A DNA stretch of 42,383 bases from an uncultured Acidimicrobiales bacterium (GTDB lineage Bacteria > Actinomycetota > Acidimicrobiia > Acidimicrobiales > SZUA-35), in the NCBI GenBank assembly GCA_937976305.1, contig CALJSB010000030.1:1-42383 (forward strand), read 5' to 3'. The first letter of the stretch is position 1, and each line of letters begins with the position of its first letter. The notes under the pieces are model-generated. The model saw only the letters and a program-made list of their open reading frames with translations, was not told the DNA's origin and did not search any database. Shown here piece after piece: positions 5,806-35,924 of this stretch. The translations under genes and the position numbers were made by a program.

Positions 5806-6702
5806 CTAGCCGGCGAGCGAGCTCCAGTCGGCACGATCAACAGCGAGCGGCTGGGGTGAACGCACGACGATGGTCAATGTTTGAGCCGAACCCACCACTT
5901 CGATGCCAGTGATTGGCTGAGCGGGGGCAGGGCTGGCCAGATCTGCACTCCAGAAGAAGGCGAACGTTGACGGAGCGAGATCTCGACCGAGGAGGTTCTC
6001 GACTCGGTTGCCAGCTCCATTGAGGAGCCATGCTTCCCAGTTGACGGTGCTGCCGCCGAGGTTCACTCCGTAGACATCCACGTGACGGTGCTCGGCCGCA
6101 GTAGCAAAGCTTCCCGTGGCGCACGTCCAGACCGTGCCTGCGGGATACCACGAGAAGTAGCCGGCAAGTGGTGGTTCGGTGTTGGTGGTGACGACGTATT
6201 CCTTGCTCTCAGAGAACAACAGCATCACGTTGCCGCGAGAGAACTCGCCGGAATCAAGCCTGCCGACCCAGAACTCGAAGCCGCTTGGCTCGGCGGCACG
6301 GCCGAGAACGTTGCGGTAGACGAGCCGCACGAAGTCGGCGTTCGAGAGTGTTGAGTAGCGAGCGATGAACTCGTCAGAGCTGGCGAAGAAGTTGGACATC
6401 GACACCATGTCCCATTCGCCGGAGGCGAAGCCGTCGACCCAGAAGTCGAAACCAGCCTGGTCAGGGCTGCGGAGGAAGTAGGCCGAATACAGACGGTCGA
6501 TCGAGTCCGTCATTTGCGGACAGGTTGACGAATTCGCAGCCTGGGAAAGCACCGGAAGGGCTTGCGCCGCAGCGTTGTCGGACTGTGCCGCGCTGTCAGA
6601 GAGCGCAGCGTGGTTCGCTGCTGCTGCATCAGCACCACTCGGGTTCGAAAAGCCAAGCAGGCTCAACAGCAATGCACCGACAACAAAGATCCCACGCGCC
6701 AC
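5806..6702 (-). CDS. secreted protein with two DUF4214 repeats
   Basis: N-terminal signal peptide (MARGIFVVGALLLSLLGFSNPSGADA). Repeats RLYSAYFLRSPDQAGFDFWV and LVYRNVLGRAAEPSGFEFWV match DUF4214. A paralog lies at 25033..25884. Confidence 0.75.
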   Translation of the reverse strand: MARGIFVVGALLLSLLGFSNPSGADAAAANHAALSDSAAQSDNAAAQALPVLSQAANSSTCPQMTDSIDRLYSAYFLRSPDQAGFDFWVDGFASGEWDMVSMSNFFASSDEFIARYSTLSNADFVRLVYRNVLGRAAEPSGFEFWVGRLDSGEFSRGNVMLLFSESKEYVVTTNTEPPLAGYFSWYPAGTVWTCATGSFATAAEHRHVDVYGVNLGGSTVNWEAWLLNGAGNRVENLLGRDLAPSTFAFFWSADLASPAPAQPITGIEVVGSAQTLTIVVRSPQPLAVDRADWSSLAG

Positions 6703-17113: not shown

Positions 17114-17755
17114 TCACGACGGCTCTGACCCTCGCACGATCCGGACTCCCCGACCGCGCACGATCTCAATCACGTCGTTGGACGAGGATGTTTCGCGCAG
17201 GCGTGCCCGCAGGCGCTTGATCAGTGCGGTCACGGAATCGTCGGTGACGCCGTCGGCAGCAGCATCCTCCCAAACCTCAGCAACGAGATCGGGCCGTGAC
17301 ACGATGGCTCCGTCGGCCCGATCGAGCACCTTGAGTAAGCTGAGCTGGCGAGCCGACAGAGGTGGCTCGACAAGCCGAGCATCGAGCCAGACATCGTCGT
17401 TGTCCGGATCGATCCACACCCCCGCCAAGCGGCCGAGGCGGGGCACGGTTGGGGTCGCCATCGGATCCGAGAACGTAAGTTGGATCGTTCCGCCGAGCAG
17501 GATCTGATCTCCATCAACGAGTCGACGTTTCGCACCTGGAACCAATAGCTCTCCGTTGACCGCCGTGCCGTTGCGGCTCTCGAGGTCGGTGAGGATGGCC
17601 TGACCGAACTCGAACTGAAGCTCACAGTGGCGCCTCGACACTGCGTCAACGGCGATGGTGATATCTGCCTCGGGTGACCGCCCGATCGACGTCGACTCTT
17701 GCAGCTTCCACGACTGTTCTGACTCGACGAGTCGGAGTTCTCCGAACACGGCCAT
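17114..17755 (-). CDS. FHA-domain transcriptional regulator with C-terminal OmpR/PhoB-type winged-helix DNA-binding domain
   Basis: N-terminal FHA (SIGRSPEADITI ... SRRHCEL ... SRNGTAVNG). C-terminal trans_reg_C-like (LSARQLSLLKVL ... GRGVRIV). Confidence 0.7.
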   Translation of the reverse strand: MAVFGELRLVESEQSWKLQESTSIGRSPEADITIAVDAVSRRHCELQFEFGQAILTDLESRNGTAVNGELLVPGAKRRLVDGDQILLGGTIQLTFSDPMATPTVPRLGRLAGVWIDPDNDDVWLDARLVEPPLSARQLSLLKVLDRADGAIVSRPDLVAEVWEDAAADGVTDDSVTALIKRLRARLRETSSSNDVIEIVRGRGVRIVRGSEPS

Positions 17756-17758
17756 CAG

Positions 17759-19294
17759 CTAGGACCCCACACCCAAAAGTGAATCGCACGCCGGATCGCG
17801 TTCAGCGAAGACGAGCTCGTCAGCGATGAGGACGCCTCCCGAGTCGTCCTTATAGAGACGAGTCACGGCGAAGGCTGCTTCGGCGGGCGCTGATGGAATC
17901 TCGAGAACCGCTCTTCCTGGAGCAGCAGGCAAGAGGTCCACCACAATCGGTTCTTGATTGATCGGTTCGAACGCACTGGTCAACCAGACAACAGACATCT
18001 CCGCCACGAACGGACGCTCGGTGAACTCGACGCTGGCGACAAACACGTAGTCGGCATTGGGTCGAACGTCGACAACTGATCCAAACGCTCCGAACTCGCC
18101 GTCGCGGCCGATCGCAACGGCGTTGCTTCCATCGATCCCGGCCCCCGGCTCCAATGTTGCTCGTTCGACGTCCGTTGGGTCATTCCAGAAGTTGTTTGGC
18201 AACGAGTTTCCTTCGAACCCGGGTGTCGTTAACAAGTTGCACTCGAGTTCACCAGCGAGGCCGGCGGGCCACGTCGTTGTGGGTGAGCTTCGTTCAGTCA
18301 CGGTGGGATCGGGTACGCCGGTAGTGGTGGGAGATGCTGCGGCACTTTCAGGTTCGTCGCCGCCGGCTTCTCCGCCACTGACGAGTCGAGCGCCGATGAA
18401 GATCGCCGCTGTGAGTGCTCCTGCGGCGACGAGCGCAGTGAACACGCGCTTGCCCCCGCTCGCCGAGACCGGAACCGGCTGAGTCGAAAGGGCAGCGTCG
18501 GCCAAGCCTTGTATCGAACTGAACCGATCCTCTGGCTTCTTCGAAAGTGAGCGAGCGATGGCCGAGGCCATTGGCGCTGGGACGTCTTCGACCTTCTCGC
18601 TGATCGGGATGGGTTCGGACGAGAGATGATGGTGGAAGGCTTGCCCGACTGAGGTCGACTCGTCGAACGGCCACACGCCGGCGAGAAGTTCGTAGGCGAG
18701 AATTGCGGTGGCGTACTGATCGCTCGATGGCGTCGGCGCAGCGCCTTCGAGAAGCTCGGGGGCCAAATAGCGGGTCGTTCCCATCAGCTCTGTCGTTGCC
18801 GTGATCGTGTGCAGGTCGTCGGCTCGGGCGATGCCGAAGTCGATGAGCGTGGGGCGATTGTCGCTGTCGATCAAGACGTTGGCCAGGCTCAGATCGCGGT
18901 GCACGATGCCCTGTCGATGAACATGCTCAAGGGCGTCGCACAGGGAGATGAGCACGCGTCGGACGGCGGCAACATCGAGCGGGCCCGCTCGTTCGAGCCG
19001 TTCGGCCAGCGTTTCTCCCTCGATCCATTCGGTGACGAGGTACGGGTTTCCACTGCCCAGATGGCCGTAGTCGATGAGGCTGGCAATGGACTGGTGATTG
19101 ATTGAAGCGAGAATGCTTGCCTCACGCTCGAAGCGGGCGGGTTCGATCTCCGCGTTGAAAACCTTGATCGCCACTGGTTTGCCGTCTGCAATGGCGCGGC
19201 CCGGGTAGACGGTCGCAGTGCCACCGCGCCGAGGTGACCCGTCGGGAACGAATCCGACGGCTCGGATCGCAGCGGCGATATCGGCAGCGTCCAT
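17759..19294 (-). CDS. transmembrane Ser/Thr protein kinase with C-terminal extracellular domain
   Basis: Hanks kinase motifs (VAIKV, HRDLSLANVL, DFGIA, APE), a single TM (VFTALVAAGALTAAIFIGA), and a C-terminal domain of about 180 aa. Confidence 0.9.
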   Translation of the reverse strand: MDAADIAAAIRAVGFVPDGSPRRGGTATVYPGRAIADGKPVAIKVFNAEIEPARFEREASILASINHQSIASLIDYGHLGSGNPYLVTEWIEGETLAERLERAGPLDVAAVRRVLISLCDALEHVHRQGIVHRDLSLANVLIDSDNRPTLIDFGIARADDLHTITATTELMGTTRYLAPELLEGAAPTPSSDQYATAILAYELLAGVWPFDESTSVGQAFHHHLSSEPIPISEKVEDVPAPMASAIARSLSKKPEDRFSSIQGLADAALSTQPVPVSASGGKRVFTALVAAGALTAAIFIGARLVSGGEAGGDEPESAAASPTTTGVPDPTVTERSSPTTTWPAGLAGELECNLLTTPGFEGNSLPNNFWNDPTDVERATLEPGAGIDGSNAVAIGRDGEFGAFGSVVDVRPNADYVFVASVEFTERPFVAEMSVVWLTSAFEPINQEPIVVDLLPAAPGRAVLEIPSAPAEAAFAVTRLYKDDSGGVLIADELVFAERDPACDSLLGVGS

Positions 19295-20997: not shown

Positions 20998-21489
20998 CTA
21001 GTTCTCGATGAGGAACTGGGCGCCGGGGCCGCCCTCGGCTGCCTTGTCGTCTGGGTTGAAGACAAGACAGCTGTCGAGTGACTGACAGCCGCAACCGATA
21101 CACAGCGCCAACTTGTCGCGAAGTCCGACGAGGGTGGCGATCTGGGTGTCGAGCCGAGGTCGCCATTGCTCGGCGATGCGTTCCCACTCCGCCTTTGTAG
21201 GTGCTCGGTCGTCAGGCAGGTCGCTGAGCGAGTCGCTGATCTCGCTCAGCTTCAGGCCCACACTCTGCGCCGCCCGGATGAAGGCCACTCGACGAAGAAC
21301 ATCGCGTGCGTAGCGTCGCTGTCCGCCTGGTGTGCGGGTGGAGGTGATCAGGCCATTCGTCTCGTAGAAGCGCAGGGTTGAGGTGGCGACACCGCTTCGG
21401 GCTGCTGCCTCACCGATGGTGATCTCGTCGGCCTCGGCTCGAATGGGATCGGCCGGCGTTGATGTCACCGAAGGATCCGAGCCAGCCAT
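20998..21489 (-). CDS. soxR: redox-sensitive transcriptional activator SoxR (MerR family, [2Fe-2S])
   Basis: MerR HTH (ITIGEAAARSGVATSTLRFYE) and the C-terminal CIGCGCQSLDSC cluster-binding motif. ATG at 21489 preferred over the listed 21501. Confidence 0.9.
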   Translation of the reverse strand: MAGSDPSVTSTPADPIRAEADEITIGEAAARSGVATSTLRFYETNGLITSTRTPGGQRRYARDVLRRVAFIRAAQSVGLKLSEISDSLSDLPDDRAPTKAEWERIAEQWRPRLDTQIATLVGLRDKLALCIGCGCQSLDSCLVFNPDDKAAEGGPGAQFLIEN

Positions 21490-21492
21490 GAA

Positions 21493-21510
21493 CTTCAACA
21501 ATAGTTGAAG
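21493..21510. promoter_or_regulatory. SoxR-box-like palindrome cttcaac-aata-gttgaag immediately upstream of soxR
   Basis: 7-bp perfect inverted arms with a 4-bp spacer, resembling the SoxR operator (CCTCAAGTTAACTTGAGG). A TTGACC hexamer lies about 20 bp further upstream on the soxR strand. Confidence 0.35.
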
Positions 21511-22380: not shown

Positions 22381-23151
22381 ATGGTCGCTGATCATCCTCG
22401 CCGACGGGCCACCGATCATGAAGGCCACGACCACGCAAGCGCTCACGGCCACTCTCACATGGTGCACCACCACCGTGACGTGCACGGAGGCGCTGCTCGT
22501 GCCGCGGTCTTTGGCATCAGTGATGGCCTCGTCTCCAACGTCGCGCTGATTCTCGGCGTCGCTGCCGCAGCCTCGACGTCCGACTCGGTCCTCGTCGCTG
22601 GAGTCGCCGGGCTGCTGGCTGGCGCCACGTCGATGGCCGCAGGCGAATATGTCTCGATGCGAGCCCAAACCGAACTGGTCGAACGCGAGCTCGAGATCGA
22701 GCGTCGCTCGCTCATCGAGAAGCCCGAGGCCGAGACCCGCGAACTTGCTGCGATCTACCGGCAACGGGGACTCGACACCGAGCAGGCCGATGCCGTTGCG
22801 TCCGCCGTCATGGCCGATCCCGAGGTGGCGCTCGAGGTGCACGCTCGAGAGGAACTCGGCGTCGACCCGCATGACGTCGGCGATCCGATTCAGGCTGCGA
22901 TTGCGTCCTTCGTCGCCTTTGCCGTCGGTGCAATGCTCCCCTTGATTCCCTGGCTCATCTCAGAAGGCAACGGGGCAGTTGTCGCCTCGGCCGTGATCGG
23001 CCTCGCAGCATCGGCGCTGGTCGGAGTCGCGTTGGCTGTCTTCACCGAACGATCCAAGCTGCGCACCGCAGCTCGTCAGGTGGGATGGGCCAGCGGCGCA
23101 TGCGCTCTGACGTGGGTCATTGGTTCGGCTCTCGGCACCGCCATCGCCTGA
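22381..23151 (+). CDS. VIT1/CCC1-family iron/manganese transporter with His-rich N-terminal tail
   Basis: VIT-family TM core (GISDGLVSN, AGEYVSMRAQ). N-terminus HEGHDHASAHGHSHMVHHHRDVHGG. Confidence 0.8.
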   Translation: MVADHPRRRATDHEGHDHASAHGHSHMVHHHRDVHGGAARAAVFGISDGLVSNVALILGVAAAASTSDSVLVAGVAGLLAGATSMAAGEYVSMRAQTELVERELEIERRSLIEKPEAETRELAAIYRQRGLDTEQADAVASAVMADPEVALEVHAREELGVDPHDVGDPIQAAIASFVAFAVGAMLPLIPWLISEGNGAVVASAVIGLAASALVGVALAVFTERSKLRTAARQVGWASGACALTWVIGSALGTAIA

Positions 23152-23182
23152 CGCCGAAGCCTCACCGCTGCATACTTGTCGG

Positions 23183-23650
23183 ATGCGAATCCGCCCGAAA
23201 CTCTCCGGCGCCCCACTGGCGTACACCTTGGCCCAGGTCGAGGGAACCGACGTCTACAGCGATTTTGGCAAGGCGCTCTGGCGCGACGAGGGCGCTGTCC
23301 CGGCCGCCGTGAAGGAACTCGTCTTTCTCCGCACCTCCATCGTCAACCAGTGCCCCACGTGAATTGATGGCCATGTTGTCTCGGCGAGACAACGAGGAAT
23401 CACCGACGACCAGCTCGGTGCGTTGGAAGAGAGAGATCAGTGGACTTCGGTCTTTGATGATCGAACTCACGTCGCCCTCGAGTTGGCTGACGCGATGTGC
23501 GGACCCACGAGTGAGCTGTCGGCCGAGCTCATCGCTGAGCTGCGGTATCACTACGAAGAGGCCGAGATCGCTGAGCTCGTCTTGGTGTGCGGACAGGCGA
23601 ACTTGAACAACCGGGTCGGCAACGCAGCGAAGCAGCTACTCGGCGAGTAG
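23183..23650 (+). CDS. Candidate selenoprotein: AhpD-like / carboxymuconolactone decarboxylase family protein with in-frame TGA (Sec) at 23360-23362 forming CxxU-xxx-H
   Basis: Track ORFs 23120..23362 and 23423..23650 share a frame. Read-through gives LVFLRTSIVNQCPT-U-IDGHVVSARQRGITDDQLGAL..., which aligns with the CMD/AhpD core LxxLRxSxxNGCxYCxxxHxxxARxxGE. The TGA sits at the second catalytic Cys. The C-terminal part also matches (ALELADAM ... EAEIAELVLVCGQANLNNRVGNA). Confidence 0.7.
23375..23393 (+). other. SECIS-like hairpin gttgtctc-ggc-gagacaac, 12 nt downstream of the in-frame UGA
   Basis: Perfect 8-bp stem, or 6 bp with a 7-nt loop UCGGCGA. Spacing matches the bacterial SelB-binding geometry. 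Confidence 0.5.
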
Positions 23651-23677: not shown

Positions 23678-24889
23678 CTAGTTCCGGGGTAGTTCCTTGA
23701 ACGGCGTCTCTTTTGCTGGGCCAGGTTCACGGGGAAGACCGAGCGCTCGTTCGCCGAGTGTGTTGCGCTGAATCTCATCCGTGCCGCCGCCGAGACTCAT
23801 GCCTCGGCAGTTGAGGATGTGATAGGCGAAGTAGTCCTCGTCGATTGCTCGCGGTGAGCCGTCGTCAGACCACGCCGGCGATGCCGGGAAGGCGAGTCGG
23901 GCCGCAGTGTCGGCGGCTGCCCGGCCCTGAATGGTCCGCCACAGCTTCCCGATCGACGGATGGACCCCTGTTTTCTTCAGGTAGCCCATGATCGTTTCGC
24001 CGGTGTAGAGCCGGGCCAGCTCTTGCCGGGTCACGGGGTCGTCGAGCTGGTTGCGATCGCGCGCCAATTCGATGAGTTGATCGACCGGTATCGGGACTCG
24101 GCCGGCCTTGGATCGCTGCCCGCTCGAGCCCCCAACGGAAGCGACACCGGTTTGGACTCGCTCGTGCGCGAGCAGCGCGACGGCAGTGCGCCAACCGCCG
24201 TTGACGTCGCCAACAACCCATGTCTTTGGGATGCGGGCCTCGTCGATGAACACTTCGTTGAATTCGGCCTCGCCCGTCATCTGGACAAGGGGACGAACCG
24301 TGACGCCGTCTTGCTCGACAGGGAGCACAAACATCGTGACACCACGATGTTTCGGTGCATCGAAGTCGGTTCGGGCCAACAAGATGGCGTACTGACTGTG
24401 CTGGGCTCCCGAGGTCCATACCTTCTGGCCCGTCACCACCCACTCGTCACCGTCGAGGTCGGCACGGGTGGCAAGCCCAGCAAGGTCCGAGCCGGCGCCA
24501 GGCTCGGAATACATCTGGCACCAGATGTCGTCGCCTCGCAGGCCGGGGCGCAAAAAGCGATCCTTGAGTTCGTCAGAGCCGAAGTCTCGGATCGTCGGCA
24601 TCGCCATACCCACGCCGATCCCGAAGACACTGTCTTCCCTCGGGACGAGTCCACGGCTCTCTTCGTTGTAGGCGGCTGCATATTCGGGACCGAGGCCTTG
24701 GCCGCCGTAGTCGGTCGGATAGTCGAGCCCAGTGAGTCCGGCGTCGTAGAGGGCAGCCCGCCACACCTTCGCCCGGTTGAGTTGGCCCACAACACCATCG
24801 AGCACAGTTGGTAGTTCGTTGTCGAAGAACGACCGAACGGCGAGGCGGAATTCGTCGACAGAGGGCGCGTTTTCGGTCACGGCGCACAT
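23678..24889 (-). CDS. acyl-CoA dehydrogenase family protein
   Basis: Three-domain ACAD architecture with a conserved middle beta-domain (WCQMYSEPGAGSDLAGL) and C-terminal catalytic region. Confidence 0.88.
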   Translation of the reverse strand: MCAVTENAPSVDEFRLAVRSFFDNELPTVLDGVVGQLNRAKVWRAALYDAGLTGLDYPTDYGGQGLGPEYAAAYNEESRGLVPREDSVFGIGVGMAMPTIRDFGSDELKDRFLRPGLRGDDIWCQMYSEPGAGSDLAGLATRADLDGDEWVVTGQKVWTSGAQHSQYAILLARTDFDAPKHRGVTMFVLPVEQDGVTVRPLVQMTGEAEFNEVFIDEARIPKTWVVGDVNGGWRTAVALLAHERVQTGVASVGGSSGQRSKAGRVPIPVDQLIELARDRNQLDDPVTRQELARLYTGETIMGYLKKTGVHPSIGKLWRTIQGRAAADTAARLAFPASPAWSDDGSPRAIDEDYFAYHILNCRGMSLGGGTDEIQRNTLGERALGLPREPGPAKETPFKELPRN

Positions 24890-25032
24890 TATCCCGGCGG
24901 GTTCAGCGAGCGAAAAGTCGCTCGGTCAAGGTGAGCCTGGTGGTGATGCAAAACATGCCCCATGGTCTCCTAGCGCGCCTCGTTGTACTCTTGCGCTTGC
25001 GCTCGACGGAGCGGAGGGAAAAGGTGAGGTTC

Positions 25033-25884
25033 ATGATTCGTCCACTGAAGCTGATCGCTGCGGCACTCTTGGCTGCGCTGATGGCGGCAACCTCGTTGGT
25101 CGCACCAACGCCGGCTTCTGCCGAGGGGCAGACACTGCCGCTTTCTGAATGCCCGTGGTTGACCGACCCGGTCGTCCGTCTCTACAGCGCCTATTTCCTA
25201 CGGGCTCCCGATCCGGGGGGTTTTGAGTTCTGGGTGGGGCGCGTCGACGAAGGTCAAAGTCTCGACGACATCTCGGACTTCTTCTCACAGGGCGAGGAGT
25301 TCGAGACCTTGTACGGCGACAAGACCAACGCCGAGTTTGTGGAGCTGATCTACCAGAACGTGCTCGAGCGTGCACCCGACCAAGGCGGCTTCGACTTCTG
25401 GTCAGGCCAACTCGATCAGGGTTTGATGACCCGTGGCCGCGTGATGCGGAACTTCTCCGAGAGTCCCGAGTTCGTCACCAAGACCGACACCAACCTGCCG
25501 CCCGCTGGCTTCTTCTCGACCTTCCCGTCCGGCACCGAATTCACCTGCGGCCGAGGTGGTGTCGTTGTCCCGTACGTTCAGTCACCGTCTTCGTGGTTTG
25601 TCTTGTTTGCGCCCCCCGGTGACGGCAGCGTGTGGCGGACCTTTGTCCACCCGATCGCGTCAAACGGTGAGTTCCTCGGTGATCCATCTCCGAGCCTCCA
25701 GGAAAACGACATCGATGCCTTCCGTTTGCACATCGGGTTCATGCCGGTGCGTGGCAACTTCTTGCAGGTCGGGCTGGCCGAAGACGATCTGCAGCTCTGG
25801 TCTGTCGTCGAGGTCGAGGGCAAGTTCGCATGCGATGCCCTCACCGACACCTGGGCCAACAACCCCTGCGGCATCAACCCGTAG
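25033..25884 (+). CDS. secreted protein with DUF4214 repeats (paralog of 5806..6702)
   Basis: AAGGTGAGG RBS, then ATG at 25033. Signal peptide MIRPLKLIAAALLAALMAATSLVAPTPASAEG. Repeats RLYSAYFLRAPDPGGFEFWV and LIYQNVLERAPDQGGFDFWS. Confidence 0.8.
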   Translation: MIRPLKLIAAALLAALMAATSLVAPTPASAEGQTLPLSECPWLTDPVVRLYSAYFLRAPDPGGFEFWVGRVDEGQSLDDISDFFSQGEEFETLYGDKTNAEFVELIYQNVLERAPDQGGFDFWSGQLDQGLMTRGRVMRNFSESPEFVTKTDTNLPPAGFFSTFPSGTEFTCGRGGVVVPYVQSPSSWFVLFAPPGDGSVWRTFVHPIASNGEFLGDPSPSLQENDIDAFRLHIGFMPVRGNFLQVGLAEDDLQLWSVVEVEGKFACDALTDTWANNPCGINP

Positions 25885-28454: not shown

Positions 28455-30371
28455 ATGTCCGGTGTTCTAGCCTTCGTAGTCGGCCTTGTGGTGATCGTTC
28501 TGGTCATCATTTTGCTGGTCGCGTTCGTCATTTCTCAGCTGTACCGCAAGGTGCCGCAGGGCAAGGCGCTCGTTGTCAGCACGACCCGCAACGTCGTTGT
28601 GTCGTTCACTGGTCGGACTGTTGTTCCGATCTTTCACAAAGCCGAGATCATGGACATCTCGGTCAAGACCATCGAGATTGACCGCCGCGGTACGGAGGGC
28701 CTGATCTGTCAGGACAACATCCGCGCCGACATCAAGGTCAACTTCTTCGTCCGAGTCAACAAGGCCGAGGAAGACGTCATCAAGGTCGCGCAGGCCATCG
28801 GCTGCGAGCGTGCCTCTGACCCGGTCACGCTCGAAGAGCTTTTTGCTGCGAAGTTCTCTGAAGCGTTGAAGACCGTCGGTAAGGCCATGGACTTCGTCTC
28901 GCTGTACACCGAGCGAGCATCGTTCCGCGATCGCATCATCGAAGTGATCGGCACCGACCTCAACGGCTACGCCCTCGAAGACGTTGCGATCGACTACCTC
29001 GAGCAAACGCCGCTCGAGCAACTCGACACCAACAACATTCTCGATGCCCAGGGCATCCGCAAGATCACCGAGCTCACCGCCGTCGAGCACGTCGCCACCA
29101 ACAACGCGGCGAACGACGAAGCCAAGATGATCACGGCAAAGAACGTCGAGACCCGTGAGGCCGTGCTTGAGCTCGAGCGCCAGCAGGCCGACGCCGAGGC
29201 CCGTCAACGTCGTGAGGTCGAGGCCGTGCGCGCTCGTGAGCAGGCAACGATTGACACGATCAAGGCCGAGGAGAAGCTGCGGGCCGAGATGGCCAATCTC
29301 GAGACCGACCAGAAGCTCGGCATCGAACAAGAGAACCTTCAGCGAGAGGTCGAGGTCGCCGGGAAGAACCGCGAGCGAGTGCTTGCCGTTGAGGCCGAGC
29401 GCGTTCGCAAGGCAGCCGAGCTCGAGGACATGAGCCGTCGCGTTGAGACACTCGCCGCCGAAAAGGCGCTCGAAGAAGAGAAGAGCACGATTGCCGACAT
29501 TCGCCGCAACCGAGTGGCTGTCGACAAGACCGTGGCTGAACAAGAAGAAGCCATCGCCACACTGCGAGTTGTCGAAGAGGCAAACCGTCAGCGCGACGCC
29601 GTTGTGATCGAGGCGGAGGCCATCGCCCAGGGTGATCTCGTCAAGGACATCAAGGCAGCCGAAGCAGCCGAGACGGCAGCAACGCATGAGGCAAAGCGTC
29701 AGCTCACGCTGGCTCAGGCCACGATGGAGTCGTCTGATCTCGAGGCCAGGGCCAAGATCCGTATGGCTGAAGGTGTGAAGGCTGAGGAGGCGGCACAAGG
29801 TCTCGCCGAAGTCGACGTGATGACCGCCCGGGCCGACGCTGAAGAGAAGCTCGGCATGGCCGAAGTCAATGTCGATCTGGCCAAGGCCGGCATCATCCGC
29901 GAGCAGGGTACAGCCGAGGCCGAGGCCGTCGAGGCCAAGCTCAAGGGCGAAGCAGCGGGTCTCCACGACAAGGCTGCCGCCATGAAGGAACTCGAAGGAG
30001 TCGGCCAGGAGCACGAGGAGTTCATCCGCAACCTCGAAGCTGAGACCAAGGTCCGCCTGGCCCAAGTCGATGCCAACGTTGGTGTGGCCACGGTGCAGGC
30101 CGAAGCCATGAAGTCCGGCCTCGAGAGTGCCGACATCGACATCGTCGGTGGTTCGGACATCTTTGTCGATCGGATCATCGGGGCCATTGGCCATGGCAAG
30201 GCAGTCGACGGGTTCGTCGAGAACTCCGAGCTCGCAACAACGGCCCTGGCTCCGTACGCCAGCGGTGACGAAGACCTCGTCGCCAAGATTGCCGAAGCCA
30301 TTTCCGGCCTTGGAGCCGACGGCATCCGCGATCTCTCCGTCGCCGACCTGCTTCGTCAGATCGGCAAGTAG
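28455..30371 (+). CDS. flotillin-family SPFH/band-7 protein (YqiK/FloT-like)
   Basis: N-terminal TM, an SPFH domain (QGKALVVSTTRNVVVSF ... ISVKTIEIDRR ... IRADIKVNFFVRV), and a very long E/A/K/R-rich coiled-coil flotillin region. Confidence 0.88.
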   Translation: MSGVLAFVVGLVVIVLVIILLVAFVISQLYRKVPQGKALVVSTTRNVVVSFTGRTVVPIFHKAEIMDISVKTIEIDRRGTEGLICQDNIRADIKVNFFVRVNKAEEDVIKVAQAIGCERASDPVTLEELFAAKFSEALKTVGKAMDFVSLYTERASFRDRIIEVIGTDLNGYALEDVAIDYLEQTPLEQLDTNNILDAQGIRKITELTAVEHVATNNAANDEAKMITAKNVETREAVLELERQQADAEARQRREVEAVRAREQATIDTIKAEEKLRAEMANLETDQKLGIEQENLQREVEVAGKNRERVLAVEAERVRKAAELEDMSRRVETLAAEKALEEEKSTIADIRRNRVAVDKTVAEQEEAIATLRVVEEANRQRDAVVIEAEAIAQGDLVKDIKAAEAAETAATHEAKRQLTLAQATMESSDLEARAKIRMAEGVKAEEAAQGLAEVDVMTARADAEEKLGMAEVNVDLAKAGIIREQGTAEAEAVEAKLKGEAAGLHDKAAAMKELEGVGQEHEEFIRNLEAETKVRLAQVDANVGVATVQAEAMKSGLESADIDIVGGSDIFVDRIIGAIGHGKAVDGFVENSELATTALAPYASGDEDLVAKIAEAISGLGADGIRDLSVADLLRQIGK

Positions 30372-30374
30372 CCG

Positions 30375-33300
30375 GTGAGCGACGCCTCTTCGGAAGCATC
30401 GGCTGATCCGCCGGGTGGCGGAGACGTCGGTGCCCCTGGCGAAGAACCTGCTGCCTCCAGCGGTGAGGCTGGCCAAGGCCAGATCGCACAGGGAACCTAT
30501 GAGCTCCTCCGCGGTCGACTCTCGACTGCGGCCAGCGAGTTGGTCAAGCGCGCCAATGCCCTGAACGACGAGCGGCTCGGTGTCTTTGGATCGTCCAAGC
30601 TCGAGTTGGTTGCCACTGAACGGGTGAGGACCGAGTCAAACGCCGTCCCTCGCGATGTCGTGTCGGTCGGCGATCAGTTGGTGCTGGCCTACAACGTGGC
30701 GGCGGGCATCAAGGCCGAGACGCGATCTGAAGACGTCTTCGCGGTGCATCACCTCGAGTTGGGTGATGGCCCAACCGACATCACGTTCAGCCCCAATCCT
30801 GAGGGCCTGGTCGGCTCTGTCCTGGCTGATGATCAGTTTCATCGTGACTTCGACGAGCTCTACACCTATTTCAAGGAGGCCAACCTTCAGCAGCTGTATC
30901 GCACCGCGCAACGAATGCTTGCGGTGTTCCGTACCGGCGGTGGGGCCAACGACGTTCGAGTGCTGCGGTGGCAGATCGAAAACGACGGGTCGCTCCGCTA
31001 CCTCGACGCCCGCGGCGAGCGAGATCACCGCTTTCCCGCCAACCAAGATGTTGAGTGGACCCTCACGACACGGGCCGAACACGTCGGTGGCCGCCACATC
31101 GAGATCGGCGACCGCATCATGGTCAACCCGCTCGGCGGCTCGCTCGACATCCGCCTCGACGACGGCGGCGAAGGCACCCTCCTTCTGAGCGACCGTCTCG
31201 AGCACGCCGACCAATCGCTCGCCGATTGTCAGATCAGCTGGGCCAAGGCCGGCGATCTTCGCCTCATCGACGTGTTGCCCTACGGCGAAACCCAGCACCG
31301 GTACTACATCGTCAACATGCTGGTGCACTCCGCCGTGCGGATGGATGCCCTTGGTGAGGCGTTCCGCCAGCTGCCAGACAATCAGGGCATCATCTTTCCC
31401 GACGGCGTCTATCTGAAGACGGGAGAGGTGCGCACGTTCGACCTCGCGGTCGACGAGATGGAACTGCTTGAGGTCGTGCGCTCGCCCAACGGCGAGGACG
31501 TCATGTATGTGTTCCACGAACGGATGGGTGGCCGCTCGATCCTGCTGCCCTACAACGTCGTGCGCCAAGAGGTCGCGGCGCCCATCTGGTGTCATGGTCA
31601 CTCACTCTTCGACGACGGCACGATGGTTGTGTTTCGAGAAGAGCCAGAGCCAACGACGATTCACCCACTGCAGATCTGGGTGACGCCATTTTCGAGCGAC
31701 GAGTGGTACGCCGCCCAACCTCGTGAGGCTACGAAGTTCGATCGCATTGGTAACGCCTCGTTGGTCAACGGCATCGCTGATGCGCTGGCCCTCGGCCGAC
31801 TGGTATCTGAAGTCGAGCCATCCACCGCCGTCTACGCCGACGTTCTGGCGTCCACCGGGCGGTTCATCGACGCTCACCATTGGGCAGCCGACGACGCAGT
31901 TGGCAACTTGGCCGAGCCGGCCAACGACATTCGCCTTGTTGCCGAGCAAGTCATCGACGAGTTCGAGCGGCTGCAAGAGGTGCAGGCCTCAGCTGCGGCG
32001 ACCTTGGCCGAAGCAAGCGAAGAAACCGAGCGGACCCTCGAGGATCTCCGCCTCAGCCCACCGAAGACCACCGAGGGATACATCGACGGTTTGGCCGACA
32101 TTCGCCGCCGCATCGGTCACCTGCACACCATTCGCGAACAGCGCGAGATTGATCTGGTTCGCGTTGACGAACTCATTGGTTCGGCCGAGACGGCCTACAA
32201 CGATCTGGCCCAATCTGCTGCCGCCCACCTCTCGACTGACAACGCGTTCGTTCCCTATCACGAGCGGTTGACAGAGATCTCCAACCAGACACCAAACCTT
32301 CTCTCGTCGCTCGAAGCAACTGAGCTGATGGACGAGGTCGACGCCGTCGCCGAATCCATGGATCTCGTCGCCGGCACCGTCGGCGACTTGGTCGTCGAAG
32401 ACCCGCGAGTCCGAACCTCCGTGCTCGAACAGGTCTCCGGCGTGCTGGCCGAGCTGAACCGTGTCCGGGCCGGGGCGGAAGGCAAGCGCGAAGAACTCGT
32501 GCAGTCAGAAACGGGTGCGGCCTTTGCCACTGAGCTCGGCTTGTTCGGCCAGTCGATTGCCGCCGCGGTCGGACGGGCCGACACGCCCGAAGCGTGCGAC
32601 GAAGCCCTCGCTCGCCTGCTCCTCCAGCTCGAGCAACTCGAAACCGCAGGCCCTCGGACCGAGGCGCAGCTCGACGAGTTGAACCAACGACGCGATCAGG
32701 TCACCGAAGCGCTTTCAGGTCGCCGGCAGCAACTGGTCGACGAACGCCAGCAGCGAGCCGAACGTTTGGTGTCCGCAGCCGACCGCACGCTCGTGCGCGT
32801 GGGGGAGCGAGCGCAAACGCTCGACTCTGTCGACGATGTCAACGGCTTCTATGCCGCCGACCCCATGGTCGCCCGCGTTCGCAAGCTGGTCGACGATCTT
32901 CGTGAGCTTGGCGAGCCTGTTCGAGCCGACGAGCTGCAGTCGAAGTTGGGGGCATCTCGCGACAATGCAGCCCGAGCGCTGCGAGATCGCCAAGATCTCT
33001 TTGATGGCGAAGCGGTCAAGCTCGGCCGTCATCGCTTCAGCGTCGATGACCGTGCCCGCGAACTCACCATCGTCCCGAGCGGCGAGCAACTCAACGCGGT
33101 GCTCACGGGTACTGATTTGCGCCTCCCCGTCACCGGCCCAGGACTCGACAACCTCAAAGAACTGTGGGATCAGCCACTGTCGTCAGAAAGCCCCGAGCTC
33201 TACCGATCGGCCTTCCTGGCCGGTGATCTGCTGCTCGACACGCTGCACGGCGGTGCCGACCCCGAACGAGACGAAGCCATCAGAACTGCGCTTCGCAACG

Positions 33301-35924
33301 AGGATGCCGATGCGATCCTCCGAATCGTGCGGGCCGAGGTCGACAACCGCCTCGACGAGGGATACGACCGAGGTGTCCACGACCTCGACGCAGCCCGCAT
33401 TCTCGAGGGCTTCGGAGCCGTCGCTCACGTGGCAGACACCCTGACGGCAACGAGCTCGACCAGAGCGGCCGCCCAGATTGCGTGGGCCCACCGCTTCTCT
33501 GACCACCAGCGTGATCGCTGGACCGACCGAGGACGGGCTGGAGCCACGCTGGGCCTCGACAAGGCCACCGTCGCCGAGCTCACTGAGGAACTGGCCGCTG
33601 ACTTGGCCCGGACCTCTGACGCTGAAGCTGAGGTGGCGATCGCTGATCGTCTGGTCGCCCGCTACCTGATGGCCGAGTTGCTGAACCCCGATGGTTTGGC
33701 GTTTGCCCAGACGCGGGCCGCATCGGAGCTCACCGACCGGTTCGCATCGTCGCCAGATGTGCGGGCCCTCGTCGACGGAATGGACGACGATCTCGGCGGT
33801 GTCACGACGGTGCTTGCCGACTACGTGAGCCGCGAAGTGCGCGACGTCGAGAGCCATCTGATCGATGAGATCGTCGCCGCACTTGTCACTCCTGATCTTC
33901 CCCGTCGCATTGTCGATGTCGAGCTCGCCGTGTCGGTCGACGGACTGATCGGCCGTCACGTCACGTTCGAAGCTGGCACGCTCGCTGATCGAGTCGATGG
34001 CCTACTCGAAACAGTCGACCGCCATCGGCTGGCAACGCTCCCTGCTCACCGAGCGTTTGCGGCGGCTCGTCGCGAAGCGCTCGATGATGTGAAAGACACC
34101 CTGCGTGTCGACGAGCTCGAGCCTCGGGTGCCCGAGGGCTTTGTTCGTAACCAACTGATCGACCAGGTGTATCTGCCGCTCATCGGCGACAACTTGTCCC
34201 GCCAGATCGGCACCGTTGACGATCGCACGGGCGCCCGATCTGGCCTGTTGATGTTGCTGTCGCCCCCGGGCTACGGCAAGACCCTGCTTGTTGAATACCT
34301 CGCCGATCGCCTCGGCATGGCCTTGGTCAAGGTGTCTGGCCCAGGTTTGGGTCACGACGTCACGTCGCTCGACCCCGGCCAGGCGCCGAGCGCGACTGCA
34401 GCCCGCGAGATCGAACGCATCAACTTGTCATTCGCCGTTGGCACCAACGTGATCCTCTACCTCGACGACATTCAGCACACCAACGCTGAGTTTCTCCAAC
34501 GGTTCATTGCCCTCTGTGATGCGCAACGGCGAGTCGAGGGTGTGTGGAACGGTGAGTCGACCTCGTTCGACCTGCGAGGCAAACGCTTCGCCGTCGTCAT
34601 GGCCGGCAACCCCTACACCGAGTCGGGTGAGCGGTTCCGCGTGCCGGACATGCTGGCCAACCGAGCCGACACCTACAACCTCGGTGACGTGCTCGAAGGC
34701 AACGCTGATCTGTTCGCCAAGAGCTATCTCGAGAACGCCCTCAGCTCGAACCCGGTGCTGGCGCCACTTGTCGGCACCGACCCTGGCGATCTCGAACGCT
34801 TCTTCCGTGCCGCCGACGGCGAGCCGCTCGACGAGTCGTCGCTCAAGCAGAGCTACTCGTCCGCTGAAGCCAACGAGATCGTCTCGGTGTTGCGTCACCT
34901 GCGCCAGGTGCAAGAGGTCGTTCTCACGGTGAACCGTCAGTACATCGCTTCTGCCGCCAGTGCAGATGCCTATCGGACCGAACCGCCGTTCCTCCTGCAG
35001 GGCTCGTACCGAAACATGGCGCGGATGGCATCCAAGCTGCTGCCCGCGATGACCGCCGAAGAGGTCGATCGGATCATCGATGAGCACTACACCGCAGAAT
35101 CGCAAGCGCTCACGGGTGCCGCGGAATCAAACCTGCTGAAGCTTGCTGAGATGCGGGGAACGATGACGGACGAGCAGCGAGCTCGCTGGGACGACATCTT
35201 GTCGACCTTCCGTCGTCAGCAGCGAATGGGTGGCGACGAGCGAGATCCAGCCACGCGGGTGGTTGCGGCCATCGAAAACGTGGCTGAGGCGCTCGGCAAT
35301 CCGGCATTGGCCGCCGCCAGTGCTCCAGCCCCGCCGCCTGAGCCCGAGCAGGTCGAGAAAGCAGAGCCAGTAGATCCGCCGCCTCCACCACAGATCGTGA
35401 TGCCGCCGATCGAGATGCCTCCCGTGGTGATTCCACCAATCGAGGTCAACGTCAACGCGCCTGAAACCGGAACTGACCCGGCCGCGGCTGCGGCGATGAT
35501 CTCCGCCATCGAGCGAGTGGCTGATGCTCTCAGCATGCAGGAGCCGCTTGCGGCCCGAGCCATCGACCTGCTCGCGTCTGAAGCGTCGAAGCGACGTGGG
35601 GGCGCCCGCGCTGCGAGCGTCGGGCCGTCTGTGCCCCCTCGACCGCCGGTGCCTCGGCCGCAGTCGTCAACCAGAGATCCGATTCGAGCGGCATCAGAGG
35701 CGCAGCCACCGTCGCAGAAGGCGGTAGCCAAACGGGCGGCTGCAAAGAAGCCGACCAAGGCCGCAGGCCATCGCATTGCTGCGAATCGTCGGGCCTCGGC
35801 GCCGCCGCAGCCGCCGCAGCAGTTCCGTCGGGACCACAAGCCAATGTCGCCAAAGCCTCCGGCACCGCCGGGGAGTGGGAAGCCTCCTCAAAAGCCGAAG
35901 GCGAAGAAGCCTCCGGCTGAGTAG
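30375..35924 (+). CDS. giant (1849 aa) protein of unknown function with an AAA_5 (MoxR/McrB/dynein-like) ATPase module near residues 1180-1340 and a Pro/Lys-rich C-terminal tail
   Basis: GTG start 3 nt after the flotillin stop. Walker A LLSPPGYGKT, Walker B ILYLDDIQ, and sensor/Arg-finger-like MAGNPYTESGERFRVPDMLANRAD. About 1150 aa of N-terminal sequence that I cannot assign. Tail contains PPPPPQIVMPPIEMPPVVIPPIEV and KPPAPPGSGKPPQKPKAKKPPAE. Confidence 0.85.
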   Translation: MSDASSEASADPPGGGDVGAPGEEPAASSGEAGQGQIAQGTYELLRGRLSTAASELVKRANALNDERLGVFGSSKLELVATERVRTESNAVPRDVVSVGDQLVLAYNVAAGIKAETRSEDVFAVHHLELGDGPTDITFSPNPEGLVGSVLADDQFHRDFDELYTYFKEANLQQLYRTAQRMLAVFRTGGGANDVRVLRWQIENDGSLRYLDARGERDHRFPANQDVEWTLTTRAEHVGGRHIEIGDRIMVNPLGGSLDIRLDDGGEGTLLLSDRLEHADQSLADCQISWAKAGDLRLIDVLPYGETQHRYYIVNMLVHSAVRMDALGEAFRQLPDNQGIIFPDGVYLKTGEVRTFDLAVDEMELLEVVRSPNGEDVMYVFHERMGGRSILLPYNVVRQEVAAPIWCHGHSLFDDGTMVVFREEPEPTTIHPLQIWVTPFSSDEWYAAQPREATKFDRIGNASLVNGIADALALGRLVSEVEPSTAVYADVLASTGRFIDAHHWAADDAVGNLAEPANDIRLVAEQVIDEFERLQEVQASAAATLAEASEETERTLEDLRLSPPKTTEGYIDGLADIRRRIGHLHTIREQREIDLVRVDELIGSAETAYNDLAQSAAAHLSTDNAFVPYHERLTEISNQTPNLLSSLEATELMDEVDAVAESMDLVAGTVGDLVVEDPRVRTSVLEQVSGVLAELNRVRAGAEGKREELVQSETGAAFATELGLFGQSIAAAVGRADTPEACDEALARLLLQLEQLETAGPRTEAQLDELNQRRDQVTEALSGRRQQLVDERQQRAERLVSAADRTLVRVGERAQTLDSVDDVNGFYAADPMVARVRKLVDDLRELGEPVRADELQSKLGASRDNAARALRDRQDLFDGEAVKLGRHRFSVDDRARELTIVPSGEQLNAVLTGTDLRLPVTGPGLDNLKELWDQPLSSESPELYRSAFLAGDLLLDTLHGGADPERDEAIRTALRNEDADAILRIVRAEVDNRLDEGYDRGVHDLDAARILEGFGAVAHVADTLTATSSTRAAAQIAWAHRFSDHQRDRWTDRGRAGATLGLDKATVAELTEELAADLARTSDAEAEVAIADRLVARYLMAELLNPDGLAFAQTRAASELTDRFASSPDVRALVDGMDDDLGGVTTVLADYVSREVRDVESHLIDEIVAALVTPDLPRRIVDVELAVSVDGLIGRHVTFEAGTLADRVDGLLETVDRHRLATLPAHRAFAAARREALDDVKDTLRVDELEPRVPEGFVRNQLIDQVYLPLIGDNLSRQIGTVDDRTGARSGLLMLLSPPGYGKTLLVEYLADRLGMALVKVSGPGLGHDVTSLDPGQAPSATAAREIERINLSFAVGTNVILYLDDIQHTNAEFLQRFIALCDAQRRVEGVWNGESTSFDLRGKRFAVVMAGNPYTESGERFRVPDMLANRADTYNLGDVLEGNADLFAKSYLENALSSNPVLAPLVGTDPGDLERFFRAADGEPLDESSLKQSYSSAEANEIVSVLRHLRQVQEVVLTVNRQYIASAASADAYRTEPPFLLQGSYRNMARMASKLLPAMTAEEVDRIIDEHYTAESQALTGAAESNLLKLAEMRGTMTDEQRARWDDILSTFRRQQRMGGDERDPATRVVAAIENVAEALGNPALAAASAPAPPPEPEQVEKAEPVDPPPPPQIVMPPIEMPPVVIPPIEVNVNAPETGTDPAAAAAMISAIERVADALSMQEPLAARAIDLLASEASKRRGGARAASVGPSVPPRPPVPRPQSSTRDPIRAASEAQPPSQKAVAKRAAAKKPTKAAGHRIAANRRASAPPQPPQQFRRDHKPMSPKPPAPPGSGKPPQKPKAKKPPAE

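Follow-up and report, generated by a model that had tools for sequence, protein, structure and literature searches.

The stretch of DNA analysed here (the window) is 42,383 nucleotides long and covers positions 1 to 42,383, forward strand, of contig CALJSB010000030.1 in assembly GCA_937976305.1, which derives from an uncultured Acidimicrobiales bacterium. At 23183-23650 it contains a gene of the carboxymuconolactone decarboxylase (CMD)/AhpD family that is interrupted by one in-frame TGA codon. The features of the gene and of its upstream neighbours, in window coordinates, are as follows:

20998-21501, minus strand: MerR-family regulator, further upstream of the gene under study
22381-23151, plus strand: VIT1-family Fe/Mn transporter gene, ending 32 nt upstream of the gene under study
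23183..23650, plus strand: complete coding sequence of a predicted AhpD-like/CMD-family selenoprotein, 155 codons plus TAG, with selenocysteine (Sec) at codon 60, from translation
23315..23317, plus strand: codon of Glu45, the putative proton-relay glutamate, 12 residues before C57, placed by the offset of the PA0269 alignment
23351..23374, plus strand: active-site codons C57-P-T-U60-I-D-G-H64 (C-x-x-U-x-x-x-H), from translation and the PA0269 alignment
23360..23362, plus strand: in-frame TGA predicted to be read as selenocysteine U60, with TGA in 29 of 34 orthologs and TGC/TGT in 5 of 34
23371..23397, plus strand: bacterial SECIS-like hairpin within the coding sequence, from its fold, its occurrence in 29 of 29 TGA forms, covariation and synonymous constraint
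23648..23650, plus strand: TAG, the true stop of the gene, homologs ending at the matching ...AAKQLLG[EP]

Between ATG 23183 and TAG 23650 the 155-codon frame has a single internal stop, and its translation reads ...SIVNQCPT, stop, IDGHVVSARQRG...LLGE, stop; with residue numbers, the peptide around the TGA is SIVNQ-C57-P-T-stop-I-D-G-H64-VVSARQRG. The mechanically called open reading frames (ORFs) at 23120..23362 and 23423..23650 lie in a common frame, and translation of 23183-23650 showed that the coordinates and the read-through frame described in the initial annotation were correct. The start at ATG 23183 agrees with the N-termini of homologs (MKTRIKLSGAPLAY), and five homologs with cysteine at the interrupted position align over their full length with 61-66% identity.

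The gene converges on an acyl-CoA dehydrogenase gene and may be co-transcribed with the VIT1 gene. The VIT1 and acyl-CoA dehydrogenase neighbours are common only to the closest relative (L003, 81% identity) and differ in all other genomes; a conserved operon was rejected on these grounds, and the gene is thus regarded as a stand-alone gene without a conserved partner. As the VIT1/MerR arrangement is found only in L003, a link to metal-oxidative stress is speculative. No ahpC was found near the locus or in the window, so that a role as AhpC reductase is unsupported by the context. Scans for promoters and terminators found no promoter-like or terminator-like sites around the gene.

Several other genes of the window were recorded in passing. 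A 638-aa ORF without a Pfam match (28455-30371, plus strand) is directly followed by a 1849-aa ORF (30375-35924, plus strand) with DUF3686 ('ATPase involved in DNA repair', E = 7e-156) and DUF7902, and the two possibly form a large two-gene module with a putative repair or defence role. Two DUF4214 proteins are encoded in the 42-kb window, at 5806-6702 (minus strand) and 24808-25884 (plus strand). The mechanical ORF of the latter shares approximately 80 nt with the start of the acyl-CoA dehydrogenase gene, and its real start probably lies further downstream, a 312-aa product being called on L001. At 17114-19294 (minus strand), a Ser/Thr protein kinase (Pkinase) adjoins a regulator with FHA and winged-helix (Trans_reg_C) domains, a typical actinobacterial signalling pair.

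With cysteine replacing the stop, the read-through product scored 48.6 bits against PF02627 (Pfam CMD; cutoff 23) and 45.8 bits against TIGR00778 (AhpD core domain; cutoff 27.8). Its nearest solved relative by sequence is Pseudomonas aeruginosa PA0269 (2O4D, 2IJC and 7XW1; E ~5e-12), to which the sequence downstream of the TGA aligns through residue 146. E45, C57, U60 and H64 align to Glu36, Cys48, Cys51 and His55 of PA0269 with a constant offset of 9. These two profile matches, the PA0269 alignment and the fold match given below uphold the proposed assignment of the product to the CMD/AhpD family, and the TGA falls, as was also proposed, exactly on the second catalytic cysteine, aligned to Cys51 of PA0269. 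The motif can be refined to E-x11-C-x2-C-x3-H with the TGA at the second Cys, the glutamate being conserved too. The alignment of the full-length homologs shows no variation at C57 and H64 or in K44-E45-L46. The proton relay of PA0269 consists of five residues, Glu36, Cys48, Tyr50, Cys51 and His55, equivalent to Glu118, Cys130, His132, Cys133 and His137 of Mycobacterium tuberculosis AhpD (PMC3141380). Four of the five are matched in the read-through product and the fifth, Tyr50 (His132 in M. tuberculosis AhpD), is Thr59, a replacement through which catalytic details may differ. The second Cys of the redox motif, where the TGA falls, is the residue that we take to be the reactive nucleophile in M. 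tuberculosis AhpD.

The structure was modelled on P0001, a Cys homolog of 66% identity, and not on the read-through sequence. The AlphaFold (AF2) model of P0001 (pLDDT 85.9) is all-helical with 9 helices, and its top PDB matches in Foldseek are the P. aeruginosa AhpD entries 7xw1, 2ijc and 2o4d, with target-normalised TM scores of 0.77-0.83 (0.83 for 7xw1). Further matches of the model are to other AhpD-like 'antioxidant defence' proteins and to Bmp8, a thiol-dependent debrominase. From this model, an all-alpha AhpD-like fold is predicted for the family. Five NCBIfam models were scored for an AhpD-type selenoprotein, and none gave a match at its cutoff:

NF053654 (YciW-related): score 49.2, cutoff 310
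NF041238 (AhpD_rel_CFYUT): score 21.2, cutoff 175
NF041047 (GSU3128): score 20.9, cutoff 110
NF041537 (ArsM/AhpD): score 16.9, cutoff 510
TIGR01926 (peroxid_rel): score 28.8, cutoff 81.8

The ortholog set consisted of the window, the metagenome contig L002, 28 loci from a one-genome-per-species scan and 4 extra fetched Cys forms. TGA occupies the homologous codon in 27 of the 28 species-level genomes (TGC in the other) and in the metagenome contig as well. The Cys-containing homologs with which the initial annotation had suggested a comparison do exist, five genes carrying TGC or TGT at this codon, and in a neighbour-joining tree these five group in one clade, which lies within the TGA forms. 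Nearly all of the 28 species-level loci are labelled as Acidimicrobiales or Actinomycetota metagenome-assembled genomes (MAGs), one being a closed 4.37-Mb chromosome, and the TGA gene is carried by both OZ245048.1 (L023, 4.37 Mb) and CBDHHN010000004.1 (L018, 3.6 Mb). One locus with a TGA gene and a typical hairpin (L013, CAXMSE010000001.1) is labelled 'uncultured Gammaproteobacteria bacterium' and is probably mis-binned, all other loci being Acidimicrobiales or Actinomycetota.

The hits of a protein database search were of three kinds: five full-length homologs with C-x-x-C-x-x-x-H, approximately 25 fragments of 85-105 aa beginning just past the position of the stop, and four fragments ending exactly at ...NQCPT or ...NRCAT. 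Fragments that break at the TGA are what is expected when gene callers end a gene at its Sec codon, and the family appears in public annotation as split fragments or as 'hypothetical protein'. Among the 29 TGA genes, the median pairwise dN/dS is 0.19 upstream of the TGA and 0.19 downstream of it; the downstream two thirds of the gene are therefore maintained as protein, and translation continues past the UGA. The codon that follows the TGA varies by genome (CTG, CTC, ATT, ATC, ATG or GTG), and the most conserved peptide, GHVVSARRRG, comes directly after the TGA, ahead of any conserved start codon or possible restart. Of the 29 genes, 22 have C as the base after the TGA (window position 23363), 4 have A, the window among them, and 3 have G. 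In E. coli, UGA-C is the weakest context for termination by RF2 and would favour recoding. In spite of the high GC content, the Thr codon before the TGA is ACT in most cases; this codon and the C after the TGA may, as sequence context, influence how termination and recoding compete.

The hairpin that follows the TGA is formed by the arms GTTGTCTC (23375-23382) and GAGACAAC (23386-23393) around the loop GGC (23383-23385), and folding confirmed the perfect 8-bp stem, starting 12 nt after the TGA, that had been noticed earlier. A wobble pair, U23374-G23394, lengthens the stem to 9 bp (23374-23382/23386-23394) and sets the spacer at 11 nt. Beyond an A/A mismatch, C23371 and C23372 form outer pairs with G23397 and G23396, respectively. 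For the 64-nt segment the folding energy is -22.3 kcal/mol (z = -1.95), a value matched by 7 of 200 shuffled sequences. The fold energy of the single sequence is thus only mildly unusual, and it is the comparative data that lift the hairpin above chance.

The hairpin is present in identical register in 29 of 29 TGA forms, and in one of the five Cys forms. In the 60-nt alignment, standard pairs make up 98.4% of the pair cells, and compensatory double changes occur at three stem pairs (U-A/U-G/C-G; U-A to C-G; C-G to U-A). The covariation score was reached by 0 of 500 shuffles, and sliding of the partner strand abolishes the pairing; the covariation rests on few events, namely 4 cells in 3 pairs. 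In the eight hairpin codons, +4 to +11, the choice of synonym hardly varies, with His CAT in 28/28, Ser TCG in 28/28, Ala GCG in 27/27, Arg AGA in 25/27 and Arg CGA in 24/26, whereas CAC is the dominant His codon elsewhere in the gene and codon entropy outside the hairpin is 1.2-2.4 bits for residues of four- to six-fold degeneracy. Measured as pS, synonymous change is 0.167 in the hairpin codons versus 0.62-0.67 in the flanks. Four of the five Cys forms encode the same or a similar peptide with different codons, and the hairpin is gone. The hairpin is under selection at the RNA level, and this selection is limited to the TGA codon state. The nested position of the Cys clade and the loss of the hairpin in four of its five members fit an ancestral Sec, a single Sec-to-Cys switch and the decay of a SECIS that had become useless. 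The Cys form that retains the hairpin, at L032:2381-2875 (the Logan contig of SRR29340338, encoding P0001), has TGC followed by the intact series CAT GTC GTC TCG GCG AGA CGA CGA, and has the appearance of a gene recently converted from Sec to Cys in which the SECIS survives as a relic.

In its published description (PMC1088965), a bacterial SECIS is a stem-loop that is stable, follows the TGA and carries G in a small apical loop, and the geometry found here (11-nt spacer, 9-bp helix and G-rich loop of 3 nt) agrees with that description. The SECIS-like character first suggested for the hairpin is thereby borne out in its conservation, its specificity to TGA forms, and its position and shape. 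A scan of the window against Rfam gave no family match, which is expected since bacterial SECIS elements are poorly represented in Rfam. No convincing second copy of the hairpin core and no other convincing TGA-interrupted gene were found in the window, the candidates being rejected as antisense frames or gene junctions.

The initial annotation also held that such a gene implies a functional Sec-insertion system in the organism. Searches by tblastn with E. coli SelA, SelB and SelD found no selA, selB or selD in the 42-kb window or in the approximately 430 kb of flanks of 29 homologous loci, and ARAGORN found no tRNA-Sec in the window, which has no tRNA at all, or in the 29 flanks. Two weak SelD matches in L028 were rejected as PurL and PurM. 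A database query with E. coli SelA gave Enterobacteria only among the best 120 matches listed. In the literature, selA, selB, selC and selD are reported in all complete genomes of Actinomarina, a member of the class Acidimicrobiia (2026 preprint), and SelA, SelB and SelD in Acidimicrobiales bin76 (sponge-symbiont study, Table S4); nothing relevant was found on Microthrix or Ilumatobacter with selenocysteine.

Metagenomes were also scanned for a SelA motif in high-GC coding, and 120 loci were ranked by their tetranucleotide distance to the Acidimicrobiales loci. The top candidate, L070 (Ga0316194_10000138), was rejected as a false positive from Acidobacteriota, its SelA relatives being named Acidobacteria or Acidobacteriota; as it was the nearest of the 120 SelA contigs, composition alone can mislead. 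The second-ranked locus, L140, led to a selA-selB operon on contigs of Actinomycetota (78 kb and 238 kb; GC ~58%), where the two genes are adjacent:

L157:10001-13118: adjacent selA and selB
L158:15861-19011: adjacent selA and selB
L159:9144-12294: adjacent selA and selB

Synteny around the operon is conserved on these contigs (aspartate kinase, aspartate-semialdehyde dehydrogenase and tRNA-Pro), a WhiB gene adjoins selB on L159, and the proteins neighbouring selA-selB belong to 90% clusters named '[Actinomycetota bacterium]'. The tetranucleotide distance of the contigs is 0.0133 to L030 and 0.0140 to L023, with an internal maximum of 0.0138-0.0159, and their signature places them inside the range spanned by the low-GC loci with the AhpD-like gene. 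No tRNA-Sec was found within 10 kb of selA-selB on the three contigs, and no accession ties them to a genome with the AhpD-like gene. They show that the Sec trait exists in related actinobacteria, which is support for the lineage and not for this particular genome; for the source organism itself, we infer a Sec-insertion system. Separately, the glutamine synthetase of L157 (785-2134) was called in two pieces, a 60-aa Gln-synt_N followed by a 376-aa Gln-synt_C; the split could stem from a frameshift, from misassembly or from a further recoding event.

The gene very probably encodes a 155-residue AhpD-like oxidoreductase in which Sec is inserted at codon 60 in a SelB- and SECIS-dependent manner, with U60 as nucleophile, C57 to resolve the intermediate and a proton relay that includes E45 and H64. 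Selenium incorporation, SelB dependence and the physiological substrate are points that we infer from the anatomy of the locus and from homology. The mRNA hairpin 11-12 nt past the UGA would serve as the bacterial SECIS, recruiting SelB-GTP-Sec-tRNA(Sec) while the UGA is in the A site and so outcompeting RF2, and the ribosome would then proceed to the TAG at 23648. By homology, U60 would replace the second, reactive Cys of the E-x11-C-x2-C-x3-H site, and its selenolate would attack either a peroxide or a partner in its oxidised state, for instance a peroxiredoxin. C57 would resolve the intermediate as a selenenylsulfide, which cellular reductants would reduce again. Candidate substrates are a hydroperoxide, an oxidised peroxiredoxin or another compound, the last being included because the family contains a debrominase.

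Three other readings of the interrupted frame were weighed. The UGA could be read through by a near-cognate or suppressor tRNA that inserts Trp, Cys or Arg, with the hairpin only stimulating read-through or slowing the ribosome. The inserted residue cannot be identified by sequence alone, and Sec machinery was not found in the window or flanks, both of which leave room for such an event; however, the codon aligns with the catalytic Cys and alternates only with TGC or TGT, the classic Sec/Cys pair, and the hairpin is of bacterial SECIS type in its position and small G-containing loop. Trp or Arg at the nucleophile position would moreover inactivate an otherwise perfectly conserved site, and SelA and SelB occur in related lineages, so that read-through with an ordinary amino acid is considered very unlikely.

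It is extremely unlikely that the TGA is a genuine stop, leaving either a pseudogene or two small genes, one for a 59-aa N-terminal peptide and one for an independently initiated C-terminal protein. Public gene callers do annotate N-terminal fragments and C-terminal fragments of 85-105 aa, as this would predict, but the stop lies at one and the same codon in 29 genomes with a dN/dS of 0.19 on either side, and the GHVVSARRRG peptide lies directly after the TGA, before any conserved start, where the next codon is variable. A genuine stop would also split His64 and half of the fold from C57, whereas the Cys homologs are single polypeptides over their full length. Close homologs show no true truncation, one of the outcomes that the initial annotation had named as contrary to its proposal, since purifying selection on the part after the TGA equals that on the part before it. 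A sequencing error, another such outcome, is excluded by the occurrence of TGA in 29 independent assemblies. An error of assembly or sequencing, or a variant code in which TGA is sense everywhere, has nothing further in its favour than the bare presence of an in-frame stop. The 29 assemblies come from unrelated projects and technologies, and within the window 14 of 29 long ORFs end in TGA, among them the adjacent VIT1 gene (23149-23151), from which it follows that TGA is an ordinary stop and the genetic code is standard. Both variants are refuted by these observations, and their probability is negligible.

Sec insertion at codon 60 fits a wider picture that we hold to be probable, if with distinctly less confidence, namely an order-wide, previously uncurated selenoprotein subfamily of the Acidimicrobiales in which Sec is ancestral and nearly universal (27/28 species genomes), with one nested Cys reversion and a relic SECIS in L032. 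If so, Sec decoding would be widespread in the Acidimicrobiales, and current MAG annotations would systematically split the gene. So far, Sec decoding in the Acidimicrobiia has been reported only for the sponge-symbiont bin and for Actinomarina (2026 preprint). The order is abundant and poorly cultured, with marine, sponge, sludge and soil habitats, and selenium use in these high-GC actinobacteria would reach beyond formate dehydrogenase. A dedicated profile used together with the SECIS signature would put dozens of MAG annotations right and would provide a convenient marker of Sec decoding for the Acidimicrobiales. The Sec forms, the recent Cys convert with a SECIS and the older Cys forms without one also constitute a natural experiment on what an AhpD-type proton-relay site gains from Sec. 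For the field, the protein family, its CxxU motif and the mechanism of recoding are all textbook matters, and current understanding is not overturned.

Among known systems, the SECIS of E. coli fdhF resembles the present hairpin in lying right 3' of the UGA inside the coding sequence, with an 11-nt spacer and a G in the apical loop; the E. coli SelB/fdhF system follows an 11-nt spacing rule and requires the loop G. The two are unrelated in primary sequence, and the element described here has a regular helix of 9 bp, in which no bulged U is obvious, capped by a GGC loop. M. tuberculosis AhpD (1KNC, 1GU9) has the same E-x11-C-x2-C-x3-H catalytic arrangement, and by analogy the chemistry is likely shared, with a redox-active dithiol there and a selenol/thiol here. 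It differs in chain topology, the fold match of the P0001 model to 1knc and 1gu9 being weak (Foldseek E = 0.47-0.73). An AhpC-coupled adaptor of the M. tuberculosis type was accordingly rejected, given this difference in topology, the lack of ahpC in the window and the variation of the neighbours between genomes.

PA0269 is closer, both in sequence (E = 5e-12) and in fold (TM 0.77-0.83, from the model of the 66%-identical homolog), and four of its relay residues correspond one-to-one. It carries Cys51 and Tyr50 where U60 and Thr59 are found here, and identity is ~33-35%. Weak reduction of H2O2 in vitro has been reported for PA0269 (PMC3141380). The view that AhpD-like CxxU proteins are a known selenoprotein family agrees with the literature since 2005: AhpD-like (COG2128) and CMD-domain (PF02627) CxxU selenoproteins were described from the Sargasso Sea and GOS metagenomes in 2005 and 2008 (PMC1088965, PMC2398784), are included in a 2026 review (PMC13188914) and are among the more abundant marine selenoprotein families. 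The present gene shares with these metagenomic proteins the superfamily, the position of Sec in CxxU opposite CxxC homologs, and a stem-loop that follows the TGA and has a G in its small apical loop. It differs from the curated AhpD-type selenoproteins in that the Acidimicrobiales subfamily, KLSGAPLAY...CPTU.[GS]HVVSARRRG...LVCGQANLNNR.GNAAKQLLG, falls far below the cutoff of each curated NCBIfam model for such selenoproteins. Judged against the NCBIfam models and public annotation, it is a new, uncurated protein of the established AhpD-like/CMD CxxU type.
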